Source: Methanococcus aeolicus Nankai-3 (lineage in GTDB: Archaea; AGJL01; Methanococci; Methanococcales; Methanococcaceae). From it: a stretch of 24,000 nt of DNA. Positions 301 to 18,915 of the stretch are shown here, one piece after another (the stretch's first letter is position 1; each line of letters begins with the position of its first letter). The DNA lies in contig NC_009635.1 in the NCBI RefSeq assembly GCF_000017185.1, positions 1,177,189-1,201,188 of the forward strand, written 5' to 3'. The notes beneath the pieces were generated by a model. The model was given only the letters and a program-made list of their open reading frames with translations, did no database searches and was not told where the DNA came from. The translations under genes and the position numbers were made by a program.

Positions 301-1791
301 ATGAATGAGATATTGGGATATATTATTGGTGAAACCACCAATACAGAATTAAGCTTTTTATCATTGGGTATGCCTGAAATTGGGGGGTATGTCTTAATAA
401 AATATGAGAATAAAAATATACTGGGAATGGTTGAAAGTGTTGTGCAGGGTTGCCCAGTATTTGATGAAGTATTAAGCGTAAATGATTTAATAAAATTAAA
501 AAACCTAGAAAATGAAGATTCCTACTATATTATGGGAAAAATAAAGGTATTGGGAGATATTGAAAATAAAGAAATTCCAAGGGTGCCACCAAAACCAGGA
601 ACAGAAGTATATATTGCCGACGATGATTCATTAAAAAATATGTTTTCAGATGGGCATTTAAAAATAGGCAAATTGATATCAAGAGAGGTTCCCGTATGCC
701 TTGATGTCAATAAATTATGCTCTCGGCACTTGGCAATATTGGCAATTACCGGAATGGGAAAATCAAACACAGTATCGGTGTTATTATCCGAATTAAATAA
801 GTTAAATGGAACCGTTGTAGTTTTTGATGTTCATGGAGAGTATAAAGAAATAAAATCAAACAACAGCAACAACATATTAAATACTCACAATGTCGAACCA
901 CAAATAAATATATTTAATATAAGTAGTAGTGCATTATGTGATTTAGCGGGAGTAGATGCACAGGCCACAAAACAGCGACCATATATTAATAAGGCAATAA
1001 AATCGGTTAAAAAACAATATAAGGAAGTTGATTTCAATTCTGCGGAAGATTATGTAAATTCAATAATATTTGAATTGGAATCATATATTGAGATTAATAA
1101 AAGAGATGCGGAAAGTATTCAAACTGCCATATTTAGATTGGAGGATATGCTTCAATTTAAAAATCACATTATTAGACTACATTATAATCCAATAGAGGAA
1201 ATAAAAGACGGACATATTAACATACTGCCATTAGATGGATTAGATGAAAATGATATGGATATTATTATTTCTTACTTTTCAAAAGAGATTTTAAAGAATA
1301 GAAAAAAATCATTTAGAAATAATGAACCAAAACCTGTATTTTTAATATTTGAGGAGGCACATTTAATAGTGCCACAAAATAGAAATACAAAATCAAAATA
1401 TTATATATCCCGAATAGCTCGGGAAGGTAGAAAATTTGGAGTTGGGATATGTCTTGTATCCCAAAGGCCCAAAACTCTTGACCAGGAATCATTATCCCAA
1501 TGCAACAATTTAATTATATCTAAATTAATAGAACCTTCTGACCAATCCCATGTTCAACATGCCTCTGAGAATTTAAGTGAAGATTTATTAAAACAATTGC
1601 CCAGTTTGAATATTGGAGAGGCTGTGATTATAGGGCCTTGTTTAAAAATTCCTGCAATTGTAAAAATAGATAAATTTGATGGAGAATATAAGGGAGAAGA
1701 TATTGATATTGTAAATATATGGAAGAACAATTATAATAATGAAAATAATGAAAAAAGACTTTATTCAGAAGATATGTATGGAGATTTATAG
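301..1791 (+). CDS. HerA/FtsK-like P-loop ATPase (DUF87 family)
   Basis: 496-aa ORF. Walker A is AITGMGKSNT, Walker B-like is VFLIFEEAHLIVP, followed by AREGRKFGVGICLVSQRP, which is typical of HerA/DUF87 ATPases. AGGGA Shine-Dalgarno-like motif upstream of the ATG at 301. No NurA-like partner in the window. Confidence 0.8.
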   Translation: MNEILGYIIGETTNTELSFLSLGMPEIGGYVLIKYENKNILGMVESVVQGCPVFDEVLSVNDLIKLKNLENEDSYYIMGKIKVLGDIENKEIPRVPPKPGTEVYIADDDSLKNMFSDGHLKIGKLISREVPVCLDVNKLCSRHLAILAITGMGKSNTVSVLLSELNKLNGTVVVFDVHGEYKEIKSNNSNNILNTHNVEPQINIFNISSSALCDLAGVDAQATKQRPYINKAIKSVKKQYKEVDFNSAEDYVNSIIFELESYIEINKRDAESIQTAIFRLEDMLQFKNHIIRLHYNPIEEIKDGHINILPLDGLDENDMDIIISYFSKEILKNRKKSFRNNEPKPVFLIFEEAHLIVPQNRNTKSKYYISRIAREGRKFGVGICLVSQRPKTLDQESLSQCNNLIISKLIEPSDQSHVQHASENLSEDLLKQLPSLNIGEAVIIGPCLKIPAIVKIDKFDGEYKGEDIDIVNIWKNNYNNENNEKRLYSEDMYGDL

Positions 1792-2052
1792 TTAATCTTC
1801 AATAACTGTCCTTTATTTGTCCTATAGTAAAAATTCCCCTGGAATTTTGAGGTCCCCCCGGGATTCAATAATCTCTGATTATTACATATCGTAAAAACTC
1901 CTTCGGAGTTTTGAGAATTATTAAATAAAATCCTTTTAGGATTTTGTACAAAAGCATAGCTTTTGTAAACAAATTTCTTAATTTATTGATAATAGGTTAG
2001 ATTTCAGCTTTTAATCGTAGATGGTTTAGTGAAAAAGACCGAAGATTGACTA
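1789..2052 (+). repeat. Family-1 intergenic element, long form, copy A (TAGT...ACTA ends flanked by TA)
   Basis: About 264 bp, roughly 85% identical by eye to the reverse complement of 3505-3764. Shares termini TAGTnAnnTTCAATAACTGTCC and GTGAAAAAGACCGAAGATTGACTA with copies at 8115 and 13338. Contains five short hairpins: 1830-1848, 1867-1883, 1894-1912, 1927-1945, 1948-1966. Confidence 0.85.
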
Positions 2053-2119
2053 TAGATTAGGAGCTCCTTAAAATAATATAAATAAAAATATAAAAATAGA
2101 GATAACAAAGAATATATAT

Positions 2120-2932
2120 CTATTCCTCTGTTTTTTTGCCCAAATAGGATATATTTATCCGTTTATCATATAATTCTATTTTTAAACCTATTTTAGCAGG
2201 GATTATTTTAACTGATGTATTATCCTTAATATATTCGCACTCCTTAATGGGATTTGTCATTTTAACTCCAATATGATTAATAACTACGAGTTCTGGCTTA
2301 TTTTTCATACTATTTAACAAATCTATTAAATCATTTGAACATAAATGACCTTTTAATTTATTATTTTTTTTCCTAACCACATTTGCCACAAGCACCCTAA
2401 CGCCATCAAAACAGTCTTTTAATGGTTCAATTAATTCGGTATCGCTTGTATATCCAATATCTCCTTTATTAGTTTTTACCCTACATCCAATCCCTTTTGG
2501 GTCTCCATGTTTTGTTGGTGTGGCTATTAATTCAATATCATGTATATTTGCAGACTCTTTTGGGTTTAATATATGAATTTCTGATTTAGATTGGTGATAT
2601 TTGGATATTGCATTTTCATATTTTTCATATCCATTCAATACAGAAATATTACTTATAATATAACCAATATTTTTTGTCATACCATATGTCATTGCCTCTA
2701 TCATAACTTCGGCATCGGTGTAGTGGTCGGGATGGTCATGAGATATAAAAATAGCATTTGTATAATATGGTATTAATTTTAAATCTGCCATCCTTACCAG
2801 AGCTCCGGGACCCGGGTCTATATGTAAATTTGTTTTTTCCGTGTGTATTCTAAATCCTCCTGTCCCCCTATTTTGGGTTATAGTTGCCCATCGTCCCCCG
2901 CCAGCACCTAAAAATATTATCTCAGCGTGCAA
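2120..2932 (-). CDS. MBL-fold metallo-hydrolase
   Basis: 270-aa ORF. HxHxDH-type motif SHDHPDH and an N-terminal IIFLGAGGG strand typical of the metallo-beta-lactamase fold. TTG start at 2932 is preceded by GGGGGTGAT (SD-like) with a 4-nt spacer. Confidence 0.85.
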   Translation of the reverse strand: MHAEIIFLGAGGGRWATITQNRGTGGFRIHTEKTNLHIDPGPGALVRMADLKLIPYYTNAIFISHDHPDHYTDAEVMIEAMTYGMTKNIGYIISNISVLNGYEKYENAISKYHQSKSEIHILNPKESANIHDIELIATPTKHGDPKGIGCRVKTNKGDIGYTSDTELIEPLKDCFDGVRVLVANVVRKKNNKLKGHLCSNDLIDLLNSMKNKPELVVINHIGVKMTNPIKECEYIKDNTSVKIIPAKIGLKIELYDKRINISYLGKKTEE

Positions 2933-3002
2933 ATTATCACCCCCATAATTGTTTATCTTTATTCTAAAATATTAGTATATTTTATATTATTATTTTTATT
3001 AA

Positions 3003-3503
3003 TCATTTAAATACGATATTAACATTATTATATATCCCACTAACCCTAACAACAACATATGGAGAAGTAATTATCATATCGGGGTTATTTGGTTGTGTTT
3101 CATTCATATATATAATCAAATTATTGTTATTATCCTTTATTATTTTTGATATTTTAATTTTATAATCACTACTTGGTTTTTTTCCAGCGTAAATGTATAT
3201 TGTAGTTTTATTATATTTATTATCTGCTATTATACTATATGATGGTTTATCATTACCATGAGTTCCAAATTTAACTATATTATACTCAGCAGACATATTG
3301 ACAGAAATGTTATTCGACATATTATTGATAATAATATTATTTTTATTATTATTGTTTATCGTGTTATTTTTTATGTTGTTGGTATTATTGTGATTATTAT
3401 TGATAGTATTGACTTCATCATTAAAATTATCCAAACAACAGGACAAACTCAGAAATAAAATACATATTATCGTTATTATTTTTAATACCATTATATCCCT
3501 CAT
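3003..3503 (-). CDS. Asn-rich secreted or lipoprotein-like protein of unknown function
   Basis: N-terminal hydrophobic signal with LSLSCC (lipobox-like Cys), an Asn-rich low-complexity linker, then a beta-rich C-terminal domain (weak resemblance to PrcB_C-type domains, low confidence). The ATG at 3491 (preceded by GAGGGA) may be the true start. The ATG at 3503 is formed at the junction with repeat copy B. Confidence 0.65.
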   Translation of the reverse strand: MRDIMVLKIITIICILFLSLSCCLDNFNDEVNTINNNHNNTNNIKNNTINNNNKNNIIINNMSNNISVNMSAEYNIVKFGTHGNDKPSYSIIADNKYNKTTIYIYAGKKPSSDYKIKISKIIKDNNNNLIIYMNETQPNNPDMIITSPYVVVRVSGIYNNVNIVFK

Positions 3504-3504
3504 T

Positions 3505-3764
3505 TAGTCAATCTTCGGTCTTTTTCACTAAACCGCTTATGATTAAGCTAAAATCTAACCTATTATCAATAAATTAAGAAATTTGTTTACAAAATCTTCG
3601 ATTTTGTACAAAATCTCGAAGAGATTTTATTTAATAATTCTCAAAATCGCAAAGCGATTTTTACGATATGCAATAATCAGAGATTATTGAATCTCGGGGG
3701 GACCTCAAAATTCCAGAGGAATTTTTACGATATGGCGGATAAGGGACAGTTATTGAACTTACTA
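3505..3764 (-). repeat. Family-1 intergenic element, long form, copy B (inverted relative to copy A)
   Basis: Reverse complement aligns end to end with 1789-2052. Hairpins at 3589-3607, 3610-3628, 3643-3661, 3672-3688 and 3707-3725. ACTA-TA end at 3761-3766. Lies 3 nt from the uppS stop and directly abuts the ATG at 3503. Confidence 0.85.
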
Positions 3765-3769
3765 TATTT

Positions 3770-4573
3770 TTACTTTCCATATCGTCTTTTTCTCTTTTGA
3801 TAATCCCGAATTGCTCTTAGAAAATCTATTTTTCTAAATTGAGGCCAATACACTTCACAAAAATAAAGTTCTGAATATATGGACTGCCATGTTAAAAAAT
3901 TACTAATTCTCTCCTCGCCCGATGTTCTAATTATTAAATCTGGATTAGGGTGGGGTAAATGTGAAGTATATAGTCGTTCAGATATTGTATTAACAGATAT
4001 ATCCTCAACATTTAATTCATTGTTTTTTATTTTATATGCTATATCTTTTATGGCATCTACAATTTCCTGCTGTCCGCCATAGGCAATTGCAACATTTACA
4101 TAATAATTATTATAGTCTTTTGTTCTTTCTTCTGCATAATCTATTGCTTTCCTAACTCGCTCGGGAAGCAAATCTACTCGCCCTATCGCCTTTATTCTTA
4201 TCTTTTTTTTATGAACCATACTGTCGTCTGCTGTGGCCATAAATTCTTGTTCAAACAAATCCATTAAAAAATCTACTTCTTCCTTAGACCTATTAAAATT
4301 CTCCTGTGAAAAAGAATATAGCGTAATTACTTTTACCCCTAAATTAACACACCAATCTACAAACTCCAAACTTTTTTTAGCACCGATTTTATGGCCAATC
4401 ATGGATTTACTTCCAATTGTCTTAGTCATTCTCCGATTTCCATCCATGATTACTCCGATATGTTTTGGGATATTTTTTTTATCTAACTTTCTTTCAAGCA
4501 TTTTTTCATAATATTTGTAAATTCCCAATTTAGTCATAAAATCGTAAATTTCTACCAACAAATTAATCACCAT
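3770..4573 (-). CDS. uppS: cis-prenyltransferase, undecaprenyl-diphosphate synthase family (archaeal GGPP-specific UppS)
   Basis: 267-aa ORF with the hallmark motifs GVIMDGNRR (N-terminal catalytic Asp) and IRTSGEERISNFLTWQSIYSELYF. Confidence 0.9.
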   Translation of the reverse strand: MVINLLVEIYDFMTKLGIYKYYEKMLERKLDKKNIPKHIGVIMDGNRRMTKTIGSKSMIGHKIGAKKSLEFVDWCVNLGVKVITLYSFSQENFNRSKEEVDFLMDLFEQEFMATADDSMVHKKKIRIKAIGRVDLLPERVRKAIDYAEERTKDYNNYYVNVAIAYGGQQEIVDAIKDIAYKIKNNELNVEDISVNTISERLYTSHLPHPNPDLIIRTSGEERISNFLTWQSIYSELYFCEVYWPQFRKIDFLRAIRDYQKRKRRYGK

Positions 4574-8111: not shown

Positions 8112-8114
8112 ATA

Positions 8115-8242
8115 TGGTAAGTTCAATAACTGTTCCTTATTCGTTCTAAATTAGAACGCATATTTACTATTCATTTTTAGTAATATAATACGGATTTTGG
8201 CTTTAATTAGGCATATTTATGAAAACGACCGATGATTGACTA
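8115..8242 (+). repeat. Family-1 intergenic element, short form, copy C
   Basis: TA-TGGTAAGTTCAATAACTGTTCCTTAT at the left and ATGAAAACGACCGATGATTGACTA-TA at the right. The interior is unrelated to copies A/B but contains the hairpin CGTTCTA-AAT-TAGAACG. Lies between the convergent AAA ATPase and polC genes. Confidence 0.7.
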
Positions 8243-13271: not shown

Positions 13272-13337
13272 ATATTCACCAAATATATATTTAAAAATAG
13301 TATAGATTATATGATATTAATAATTTTAGGTATATTA

Positions 13338-13451
13338 TAGTAAGTTCAAAAACTGTCCCTTTATTGTTCCAAATAATTAAGTGCAATGAATACATTAATA
13401 AAATATAGTTATTTATATAAATATATGGTGAAACAGTTCGAAGATTGACTA
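13338..13451 (+). repeat. Family-1 intergenic element, short form, copy D
   Basis: TA-TAGTAAGTTCAAAAACTGTCCCTTTAT at the left and GGTGAAACAGTTCGAAGATTGACTA-TA at the right. The interior is AT-rich and unrelated to copies A, B and C. Confidence 0.7.
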
Positions 13452-13453
13452 TA

Positions 13454-13669: not shown

Positions 13670-13912
13670 GGCATGAGACCTATAGCCCGCCTTCTGTAAT
13701 TTCGGCGACATTCGGCTAAGCACAATACTGCTTGCACCCATGTGGGGTAGTCTCGTTTCACTGGATTCTCGGAGCTCCTCAAATTATATCATTGTCATCT
13801 GCTTCGAGGCCATATCGTTTCTATACACTGAAACCCAGCCCTTCTCAGGACATTGCACATATTGTGGGTGGGCGGAGCTTCCTCCTATAAGGAGTCGCCA
13901 GTTCTCTTGCCA
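13670..13912 (-). ncRNA. rnpB: RNase P RNA, archaeal type M (Methanococcales type)
   Basis: The minus-strand RNA carries CR-I-like GGAGGAAGCUCCGCCCACC and CR-V-like UUACAGAAGGCGGGCUAU. P4 pairs CCGCCC with GGCGGG, P2 pairs GGCGAC with GUCGCC, and P1 pairs GGCAAGAGA with UCUCAUGCC. A short P3 hairpin is CUCC-UUAU-AGGAG. The gene is followed by a U7 run. Ends are accurate to a few nt. Confidence 0.85.
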
Positions 13913-14078: not shown

Positions 14079-14080
14079 TG

Positions 14081-14198
14081 ACTAACAGCGTCTCCCTGTT
14101 TCCACCGAATGGCAGTACTTAGGGAATCGCTGAAGGGCTTGATTTCCGAGATCGGAATGGGATCGGATATAACACCTTCGCTATGACCGTTATGTCAG
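14081..14198 (-). rRNA. 5S rRNA
   Basis: The reverse complement reads CUGACAUAACGGUCAUAGCG...CCGAUCCCAUUCCGAUCUCGGAA...GGGAGACGCUGUUAGU. Terminal helix pairing and archaeal 5S conserved blocks are present. About 118 nt. Confidence 0.9.
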
Positions 14199-14253
14199 AA
14201 AACAATAAAGTAGGTTCCTGTATCTTTAAGTGTCCAGATATTCCAATATCTCT

Positions 14254-17200
<2,947 letters not shown>

Positions 17201-17322
17201 ATAGATATGTGGAATATCTGGATATCACCAGATACAGAAACCTATGCGTAACCTTCAACTTGCAATATTTGCTATATTGCAATCCAGTTTCAAGTTATAA
17301 CCCTGTGGATTATAACTCCGTA

Positions 17323-17395
<73 letters not shown>

Positions 17396-17404
17396 ATTGT
17401 CCTT

Positions 17405-17436
17405 AGCCCATAACCATTTAGTGCTTGATAACGACC
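17405..17436 (-). other. 3' half of the 16S rRNA processing helix (pairs with 18986-19017)
   Basis: AGCCCATAACCATTTAGTGCTTGATAACGACC is complementary to GGTCGTTATCAAGTATCACTTGGTTATGGGCT except for a central mismatched segment. This is consistent with a bulge-helix-bulge endonuclease site. Confidence 0.6.
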
Positions 17437-17444
17437 TTTTTTTC

Positions 17445-18915
<1,471 letters not shown>

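Follow-up and report, generated by a model that had tools for sequence, protein, structure and literature searches.

Two inverted repeats around an MBL-fold hydrolase and PrcB gene pair in Methanococcus aeolicus appear to be separately inserted members of a MITE-like family

In the genome of the archaeon Methanococcus aeolicus Nankai-3, two repeats of about 260 bp stand in inverted orientation on either side of a gene for a metallo-beta-lactamase (MBL)-fold hydrolase and a gene for a PrcB_C-domain protein (here prcB). Does such an arrangement form one mobile unit, or did each repeat arrive on its own? The locus lies in a stretch of 24,000 nucleotides (nt), hereafter the window, which covers positions 1177189–1201188 of the single contig (NC_009635.1, 1,569,500 bp, 30% G+C) that makes up the genome; coordinates are those of the window unless marked as genome positions. 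The original prediction, made from the letters of the window, had seen in the arrangement the architecture of a mobile module, composite or cassette-like, and had named independent insertions into adjacent spacers as the alternative. Our analysis favours the latter. With a probability of about 0.88, the left repeat (copy A) and the right repeat (copy B) were inserted separately and belong to a lineage-specific, non-autonomous family resembling miniature inverted-repeat transposable elements (MITEs), and the MBL and PrcB genes are residents of the locus, not cargo.

The geometry that gave rise to the question is sound. The copies had been described as full-length reverse complements, about 85% identical by eye, and a global alignment with 264 shared and 4 gap columns puts their identity at 87.5% (BLAST match between the two, E = 1.9e-86). 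A repeat search of the window returned inverted arms at 1798–2010/3545–3757 (88%) and 2011–2052/3505–3546 (90%). Exactly two minus-strand genes are enclosed, as predicted (open reading frames, ORFs, at 2120–2932 and 3003–3503), and it is also correct that neither encodes a transposase, the Pfam domains being Lactamase_B_2 and PrcB_C. The ORF list holds no frame of at least 50 aa inside copy A or copy B.

Both copies belong to a large family of dispersed elements. The family ends are 12-nt terminal inverted repeats (TIRs), TAGTYAATCTTC...GAAGATTRACTA, with TA on either side. A search of the whole genome found 104 left and 157 right termini, against none in a reversed-genome control, and TAGTYAATCTTC with at most one mismatch gave 275 matches against 26 in the reversed control. 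Left and right ends form 91 pairs of 59–340 nt, with a mode at about 115–137 nt, and family members as a whole range from 48 to about 340 nt. The shortest is a mini-form in CP104873.1, a second complete genome (1,677,738 bp, about 99% identical), and closer relatives such as this one were found by protein-cluster look-up. Merging of BLAST matches yielded 181 loci in the Nankai-3 genome, amounting to 26.4 kb or 1.7% of the genome and to roughly 10% of the DNA outside long ORFs; only 844 bp of this family DNA overlaps ORFs. The TIR of copy A agrees with TAGTYAATCTTC at 11 of 12 positions. Copy B carries a variant left end (TAGTAAGTTCAATAAC), here in the form TAGTAAGTTC, and this variant pairs with many right ends across the genome. 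No two copies of the family are identical, the median nearest-neighbour identity being 82%, and abutting copies have one TA in common. Density per intergenic kb is 0.70 in tandem, 0.70 in divergent and 0.86 in convergent spacers, and relative to transcription 45 elements lie in the same and 55 in the opposite orientation.

Head-to-tail tandems of family members occur at genome positions 364285–364667, 1066748–1067134 and 1136402–1136634, some with a single common TA and others with a recurrent ACTA-TC-TGTTAATC junction. These tandems suggest insertion beside an existing copy or amplification as a dimer.

By its small size, lack of coding capacity, TIRs, TA duplication and high dispersed copy number, the family is a MITE. 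Terminal inverted repeats together with a TA duplication are the product of transposases of the IS630/Tc1-mariner type, and MITEs of this kind are well known (PMC2229807). The distribution of the present family is narrow. Its left-end pattern occurs 99 times in this genome and 0–1 times in each of 30 relatives, and the relatives searched for the family gave trivial AT-rich matches only. The terminal pattern was not found in the 12 Methanocaldococcaceae genomes searched, a blastn search of phages and plasmids returned no match, and Rfam gave none at E values up to 1. A 23-nt degenerate left-end pattern had 0 matches in collections of genomes, metagenomes and viral contigs, collections which may omit records very close to the genome of the window. 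A known kind of element is represented here by a family that appears undescribed, the literature searched having yielded no description of it.

The genes between the copies stand in an old neighbourhood. The order orf250-uppS-prcB-MBL is kept in 13 of the 14 loci examined, which represent both families of the order, and in the examined order-level loci the uppS–prcB spacer measures 1–63 nt and contains no element copies. Six metagenome contigs from a sister lineage (84–92% nucleotide identity) keep orf250-uppS-prcB-MBL without any family element over 8.5–12.8 kb, with the gene for a HerA-like ATPase convergent on MBL, followed by prcB and then uppS, the same as in the window. These contigs also supply the empty sites. 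At the A site they read GGAGATT-TA-GAGTAG, with HerA ending in GDLE-stop; removal of copy A (TAGT...ACTA) and one TA from the window gives GGAGATT-TA-GATTAG, with HerA ending in GDLD-stop. HerA in relatives ends in ..GGLD* (genus level) or ..GDLE*. The empty-site sequences and the restored HerA ending therefore point to insertion of copy A at a TA in the last HerA codons. The HerA stop codon, TAG at 1789–1791, now consists of the first three bases of copy A, so that the element cost HerA one residue and supplies its stop codon. At the B site the sister lineage has an empty spacer of 56 nt. Subtraction of copy B from the window leaves uppS-TAA, then 16 nt containing GAGGG, then the ATG at 3491; copy B sits 12 nt upstream of this prcB start, directly before the ribosome-binding site.

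A second line of evidence comes from the strain comparison, which covered about 60 kb of CP104873.1, sampled via protein look-ups. The elements at genome positions 1174853–1175048 and 1160960–1161120 are absent from CP104873.1, where the sites read GTCGTT-TA-TTTCTT and GCGAAAT-TA-TAAATT with a single TA, and the filled sites have TA on both sides. The filled and empty sites in the two strains are direct evidence that the TA target is duplicated and that elements were gained or lost singly after the strains split. Neither strain-specific element has a close paralog, as would be expected of movement by cut-and-paste or of a precise loss from the other strain. Remodelling is seen as well. The ortholog of copy B occupies the identical site but is shorter by one 36-nt module, the 264-nt form that Nankai-3 has at the A site is replaced by a 48-nt mini-form whose left end is the variant, and the element at 8113–8242 measures 247 nt in CP104873.1 with an extra 118-nt block of four cassettes; three other compared elements are the same in both strains. 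Because B differs by one module and the A site holds a mini-form, A and B have different histories, and the elements of the family move and remodel singly. Together with the TA flanks that belong to each copy, these different changes bear out the alternative of independent insertions.

The same comparison revealed a larger difference near another member of the family. Genome positions 1172703–1173031 comprise only a 328-nt spacer, which holds a 204-nt family element; the corresponding interval in CP104873.1 (L077:10840-13096) has an insert of 2.2 kb with three small ORFs, directly after an apparent tRNA 3' end, likely an integrated element. This 2.2-kb difference, at genome position 1172781, was considered as a MITE event and rejected, as the insertion adjoins the tRNA 3' end in CP104873.1.

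Could A and B nonetheless be the ends of a 1.98-kb composite or cassette that carries the MBL and PrcB genes and is mobilised in trans? Two full-length inverted copies around exactly two genes, which are also reciprocal best matches, are what such a unit would display. The supposed cargo, however, lies in its ancestral synteny across the order and in close relatives free of the repeats, the two copies have separate TA flanks, either empty site makes sense when reconstructed alone, and in CP104873.1 the A site is reduced to the mini-form with B still long. No single duplication surrounds the whole unit, the relatives sampled show no presence or absence of the unit as a whole, and no second copy of it was found in the genome. 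The original prediction had proposed other inverted pairs as a check, and these turned out to be common, to bracket housekeeping genes and thus to lend the cassette no support. Inverted pairs are not in excess (39 direct and 29 inverted among 68 neighbour pairs bracketing 1–3 genes), and two other inverted long-form pairs bracket ribosomal protein S6e and a RadB-like gene. The identity between A and B (87.5%) is not above that of A or B to the copies at genome positions 163167, 1049053 and 800080 (84–91%). By arithmetic from the census, the 17 long loci (at least 250 nt) among about 1,425 spacers would produce some 0.4 close pairs by chance. Synteny in relatives free of the repeats and different histories for A and B are also the observations that the original prediction had named as refuting its cassette. 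The composite reading is refuted by synteny and empty sites and retains next to no credibility, and the enclosed genes, not being a mobile cassette, offer no ground for a story of horizontal transfer. An invertible segment, in which recombination between A and B would flip MBL-prcB as a switch, has suitable inverted repeats at its disposal (255 nt, 87% identity, 1.45 kb apart), but here, in CP104873.1 and in every relative, MBL and prcB face the same way with respect to uppS, and an inversion would uncouple prcB from uppS; we regard it as very improbable.

Several observations weigh against two wholly unconnected insertions. Only about five copies have the exact architecture of A and B, and for these about 0.03 chance neighbour pairs are expected by arithmetic from the census. 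A and B are reciprocal best matches, albeit narrowly (314 bits, as against 302 and 299), and their variable cores have 45 of 46 positions in common, with no other match in the genome better than 92%. A local event thus probably links A and B. Other points concern the reading of separate insertions in general: either strain has an element at both sites and the sister lineage has none at either, which gives no order for the two insertions; clean empty sites could stem from precise loss instead of insertion; and a transposase with matching ends was not found in this complete genome. That A and B are tied specifically by short-range seeding or partial gene conversion over 1.45 kb is a tentative proposition, which would involve no mobile unit and is compatible with separately inserted copies. 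Besides the common core and the adjacency of two same-architecture copies, it can draw on the mini-form at the A site of CP104873.1, from which the long A of Nankai-3 may have been rebuilt. It has to contend with the left third of A, which is closest to distant copies (genome positions 1370949, 163390 and 1172810), with the left ends, canonical in A and of the variant subtype in B and the mini-form, and with three cassettes that differ between A and B. Moreover, the nearest relative lies within 10 kb in only 5 of 181 loci, hence local hopping is not a habit of the family. For the left third of A, and likewise for the left end of B, the best match is found at other loci. We read the relatedness of the two copies as mosaicism, with a possible local conversion or short-range event and no sign of a unit.

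Long forms consist of a scaffold (left arm, variable core, right arm) and tandem AAAA-stem-triloop-stem-TTTT cassettes. Motifs of the form AAAA-N4-N3-N4-TTTT are perfectly paired in 141 of 152 cases in oriented family loci, against 64 of 1,220 outside. The flanking context GTA...GAG holds three discrete stems (29, 22 and 18 copies), and because the stems are so few, the seemingly compensatory differences between A and B are swaps of cassette alleles that recur genome-wide, not serial point substitutions. Three cassette positions in five long copies give five haplotypes, with all four combinations at positions 1 and 2, hence recombination or gene conversion among copies is required. The same exchange process, recently at work, is seen where orthologous elements of the two strains differ by modules.

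The strength of the pairing prompts one to ask if the elements are kept for a function, as attenuators, terminators, RNA stabilisers or protein-binding palindromes, with B a regulatory insert for prcB. Folding z-scores of −4.8 as DNA and −2.9 as RNA would agree with this, as would the position of elements relative to genes. An element edge lies at most 30 nt from the start codon at 53 of 196 start-facing edges, and in 19 of 47 divergent spacers an edge lies at most 35 nt from a start codon, often with the ribosome-binding site alone left (e.g. genome 19321–19403, 216099–216332, 164674–164820), so that transcripts must start inside the element or cross it. Selection for such roles is nevertheless hard to reconcile with an orientation that is random relative to transcription and with equal densities in tandem, divergent and convergent spacers. 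Non-paired cassette motifs comprise 4 G.T pairs and 5 mismatches, a small count without G.T excess, so nothing favours constraint at the RNA level over the DNA level, and Rfam is silent. The family is also absent from the sister lineage and from 30 relatives having the same genes, and its elements come and go between strains. We consider maintenance for function unlikely.

A source of mobility was sought in the complete genome. The domains DDE_3, rve and HTH_Tnp_Tc3_2 had no match in this genome, and neither did Transposase_1 (mariner), the last a weak negative, as control genomes were silent too. DDE_Tnp_1 was found only as broken remnants at 551–553 kb, without the family TIR. Genes between long-range TIR pairs encode DUF63, an ATP-cone kinase-like protein and a FAD oxidoreductase, and no transposase is among them. 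In a self-megablast of the genome, IS605/TnpB is the only multicopy coding element, and the only match to PF01797 (Y1 transposase) is a frameshifted IS605 tnpA at 319 kb; no RAYT flanked by repeats was found. Given the absence of a DDE transposase with matching ends, the family may instead owe its mobility to an agent that has yet to be recognised as a transposase, or the 19–36-nt cassettes may be independent, actively exchanging mini-palindromes read by a structure-specific protein. This reading, which we consider unlikely, is suggested by the clean presence or absence of two single elements and the whole-block cassette differences between strains that are 99% identical, and by similar hairpins that vary among the five IS605/TnpB copies.

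The IS605-like TnpB copies are about 90% identical and lie at 42.6, 318, 480, 627.5 and 949.8 kb, one of them with a broken Y1 tnpA. Small AAAA-stem-triloop-TTTT hairpins are present in some of these copies and absent in others (e.g. a 51-nt indel near the left end).

Taken together, the history of the locus as separate insertions would start from an ancestral orf250-uppS-prcB-MBL cluster. Copy A would have landed at the TA in the last HerA codons and copy B in the short uppS–prcB intercistronic spacer, as members of a family gained or lost one element at a time. We infer mobilisation in trans by a DDE transposase that works by cut-and-paste and duplicates TA, as do those of IS630/Tc1-mariner. 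After insertion, internal hairpin cassettes would have been exchanged with other copies, presumably by non-allelic gene conversion or recombination. Most likely, prcB would be expressed by read-through from uppS across copy B.

The expression and start of prcB deserve comment, as the original prediction had placed a lipoprotein gene at 3003–3503. The gene stands, its product has a recognisable family in PrcB_C, and its start is corrected. The true start is probably the second ATG, at 3491, because a GAGGG ribosome-binding site precedes it and the 162-aa ortholog in CP104873.1 begins there. The observation that no TATA-like box lies near the start holds by eye, the 60 nt upstream of 3503 (minus strand) being without an octamer of A and T only. 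Read-through or a promoter borne by the element, as originally proposed, would be a reasonable expectation for prcB. As for the MBL gene, one source gives a member of its cluster the name phosphoribosyl 1,2-cyclic phosphodiesterase. The coordinates of all features are collected in Table 1.

Table 1. Elements, flanking duplications, genes and motifs at the locus, with two further family members (window coordinates)
Feature	Position	Strand	Basis or remark
HerA-like ATPase gene	301..1791	+	Pfam DUF87/HAS-barrel/HerA_C
Left TA of copy A target-site duplication	1787..1788	.	Single TA at the empty site of the sister lineage
Copy A, 264-nt long-form MITE	1789..2052	+	Alignment, family census
Copy A TIRs	left 1789-1800, right 2041-2052	+	
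Copy A hairpin cassettes	1830-1848, 1854-1883, 1894-1912, 1927-1945, 1948-1966	+	
Copy A variable core	1965-2004	+	
Right TA of copy A target-site duplication	2053..2054	.	
GGAGCTCC, hyper-abundant octamer palindrome	2060..2067	.	Not part of the element; also adjoins the empty site in the sister lineage
MBL-fold hydrolase gene (Lactamase_B_2)	2120..2932	-	Pfam; orthologs in 29/31 related genomes
PrcB_C-domain secreted or lipoprotein-like gene	3003..3503	-	Pfam PF14343, E = 2.9e-9
Copy B, 260-nt long-form MITE, opposite orientation to A	3505..3764	-	
Copy B ends	right TIR 3505-3516; variant left end (TAGTAAGTTCAATAAC) 3749-3764	-	
Copy B hairpin cassettes	3589-3607, 3610-3628, 3643-3661, 3672-3688, 3707-3725	-	
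Copy B core	3551-3590	-	
Copy B flanks	AA 3503-3504, TA 3765-3766		
uppS (cis-prenyltransferase)	3770..4573	-	Pfam Prenyltransf; upstream gene of the ancestral orf250-uppS-prcB-MBL cluster
Family member, 128-nt form, variant left end	8113..8242	+	
Family member, 118-nt form	13336..13453	+	Unchanged in CP104873.1

In genus-level relatives, three genes lie between HerA and MBL (window 1791–2120 against L013:3348-5278), which encode a CxxCxxCC protein, an unknown protein and a double zinc-ribbon protein. A tblastn search with these three found no match anywhere in the Nankai-3 genome, and they are also gone from the locus in closer relatives free of repeat elements. Their removal by recombination between elements was considered and rejected, as A's right flank is still able to restore the HerA stop, and the element-free closer relatives already lack the genes.

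The octamer palindrome GGAGCTCC, found beside copy A, has 1,259 copies in the genome, where base composition would lead one to expect about 2; some 1,000 of the copies lie inside ORFs. Four relatives have 184–335 copies and the remaining 26 have at most 35. The enrichment resembles the cyanobacterial highly iterated palindrome HIP1, and a report of it in Methanococcus aeolicus was not found in the literature searched. Elsewhere in the window, an archaeal RNase P RNA gene at 13671–13910 (−) adjoins an rRNA operon at 14080–18915 (−), in the order 5S-23S-tRNA-16S, of which a near-identical inverted second copy lies about 40 kb away (genome 1229973–1234796).

The family has some value in its own right. 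It fills about 10% of the non-coding DNA in a small methanogen genome, supplies the stop codon of HerA, splits an old operon at uppS–prcB, and differs between two strains about 99% identical both in single elements and in modules. In combination, these traits make it usable for archaeal studies of MITE turnover and of gene conversion between non-allelic copies, and strain markers could be drawn from it. One real puzzle is left, that a complete genome has yielded no transposase to match.

Among known systems, composite transposons are alike in geometry alone, that is, in two inverted copies around two genes; the copies at this locus encode nothing, each has its own duplication, and the "cargo" stands in ancestral synteny. 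REP sequences and the mosaic elements built from them (BIMEs) accompany RAYT (Y1) transposases in Enterobacteria and Pseudomonas, and REPs are without terminal inverted repeats or TA duplication. The present family is similar in its short palindromic units, arranged in mosaic arrays with stem pairing preserved, and is set apart by having both terminal inverted repeats and the TA duplication. Within the Methanococcales, the palindromic repetitive elements MJRE1-3 were described from Methanocaldococcus jannaschii (Suyama et al. 2005, cited in PMC2229807). As far as the description in that review goes, MJRE1-3 are likewise dispersed small palindromic repeats that make up a sizeable share of intergenic DNA, some of them fused to coding regions, and bear no sequence relationship to the present family.

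Closer parallels are found among prokaryotic MITEs with TA ends, such as the pneumococcal RUP, thought to be mobilised by IS630-Spn1, and the Sulfolobus SM-type elements (PMC2229807). Like these, the present elements are short, A+T-rich and non-coding, have TIRs and a TA duplication, occupy many intergenic sites and are occasionally fused to a gene end. They differ in that no partner insertion sequence with matching ends was found in this genome or the collections scanned, and in that their interior is a variable array of discrete hairpin cassettes instead of a fixed sequence. In the latter respect they recall the BOX elements of Streptococcus pneumoniae, which are built from boxA, a variable number of boxB units and boxC. 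Both have conserved end modules around a variable number of stem-loop units, and in both, whole modules distinguish one copy from another. They differ in sequence and in the domain of the host, and in M. aeolicus several stem "alleles" occur per flanking context, with orthologous elements differing by modules between strains that are 99% identical.

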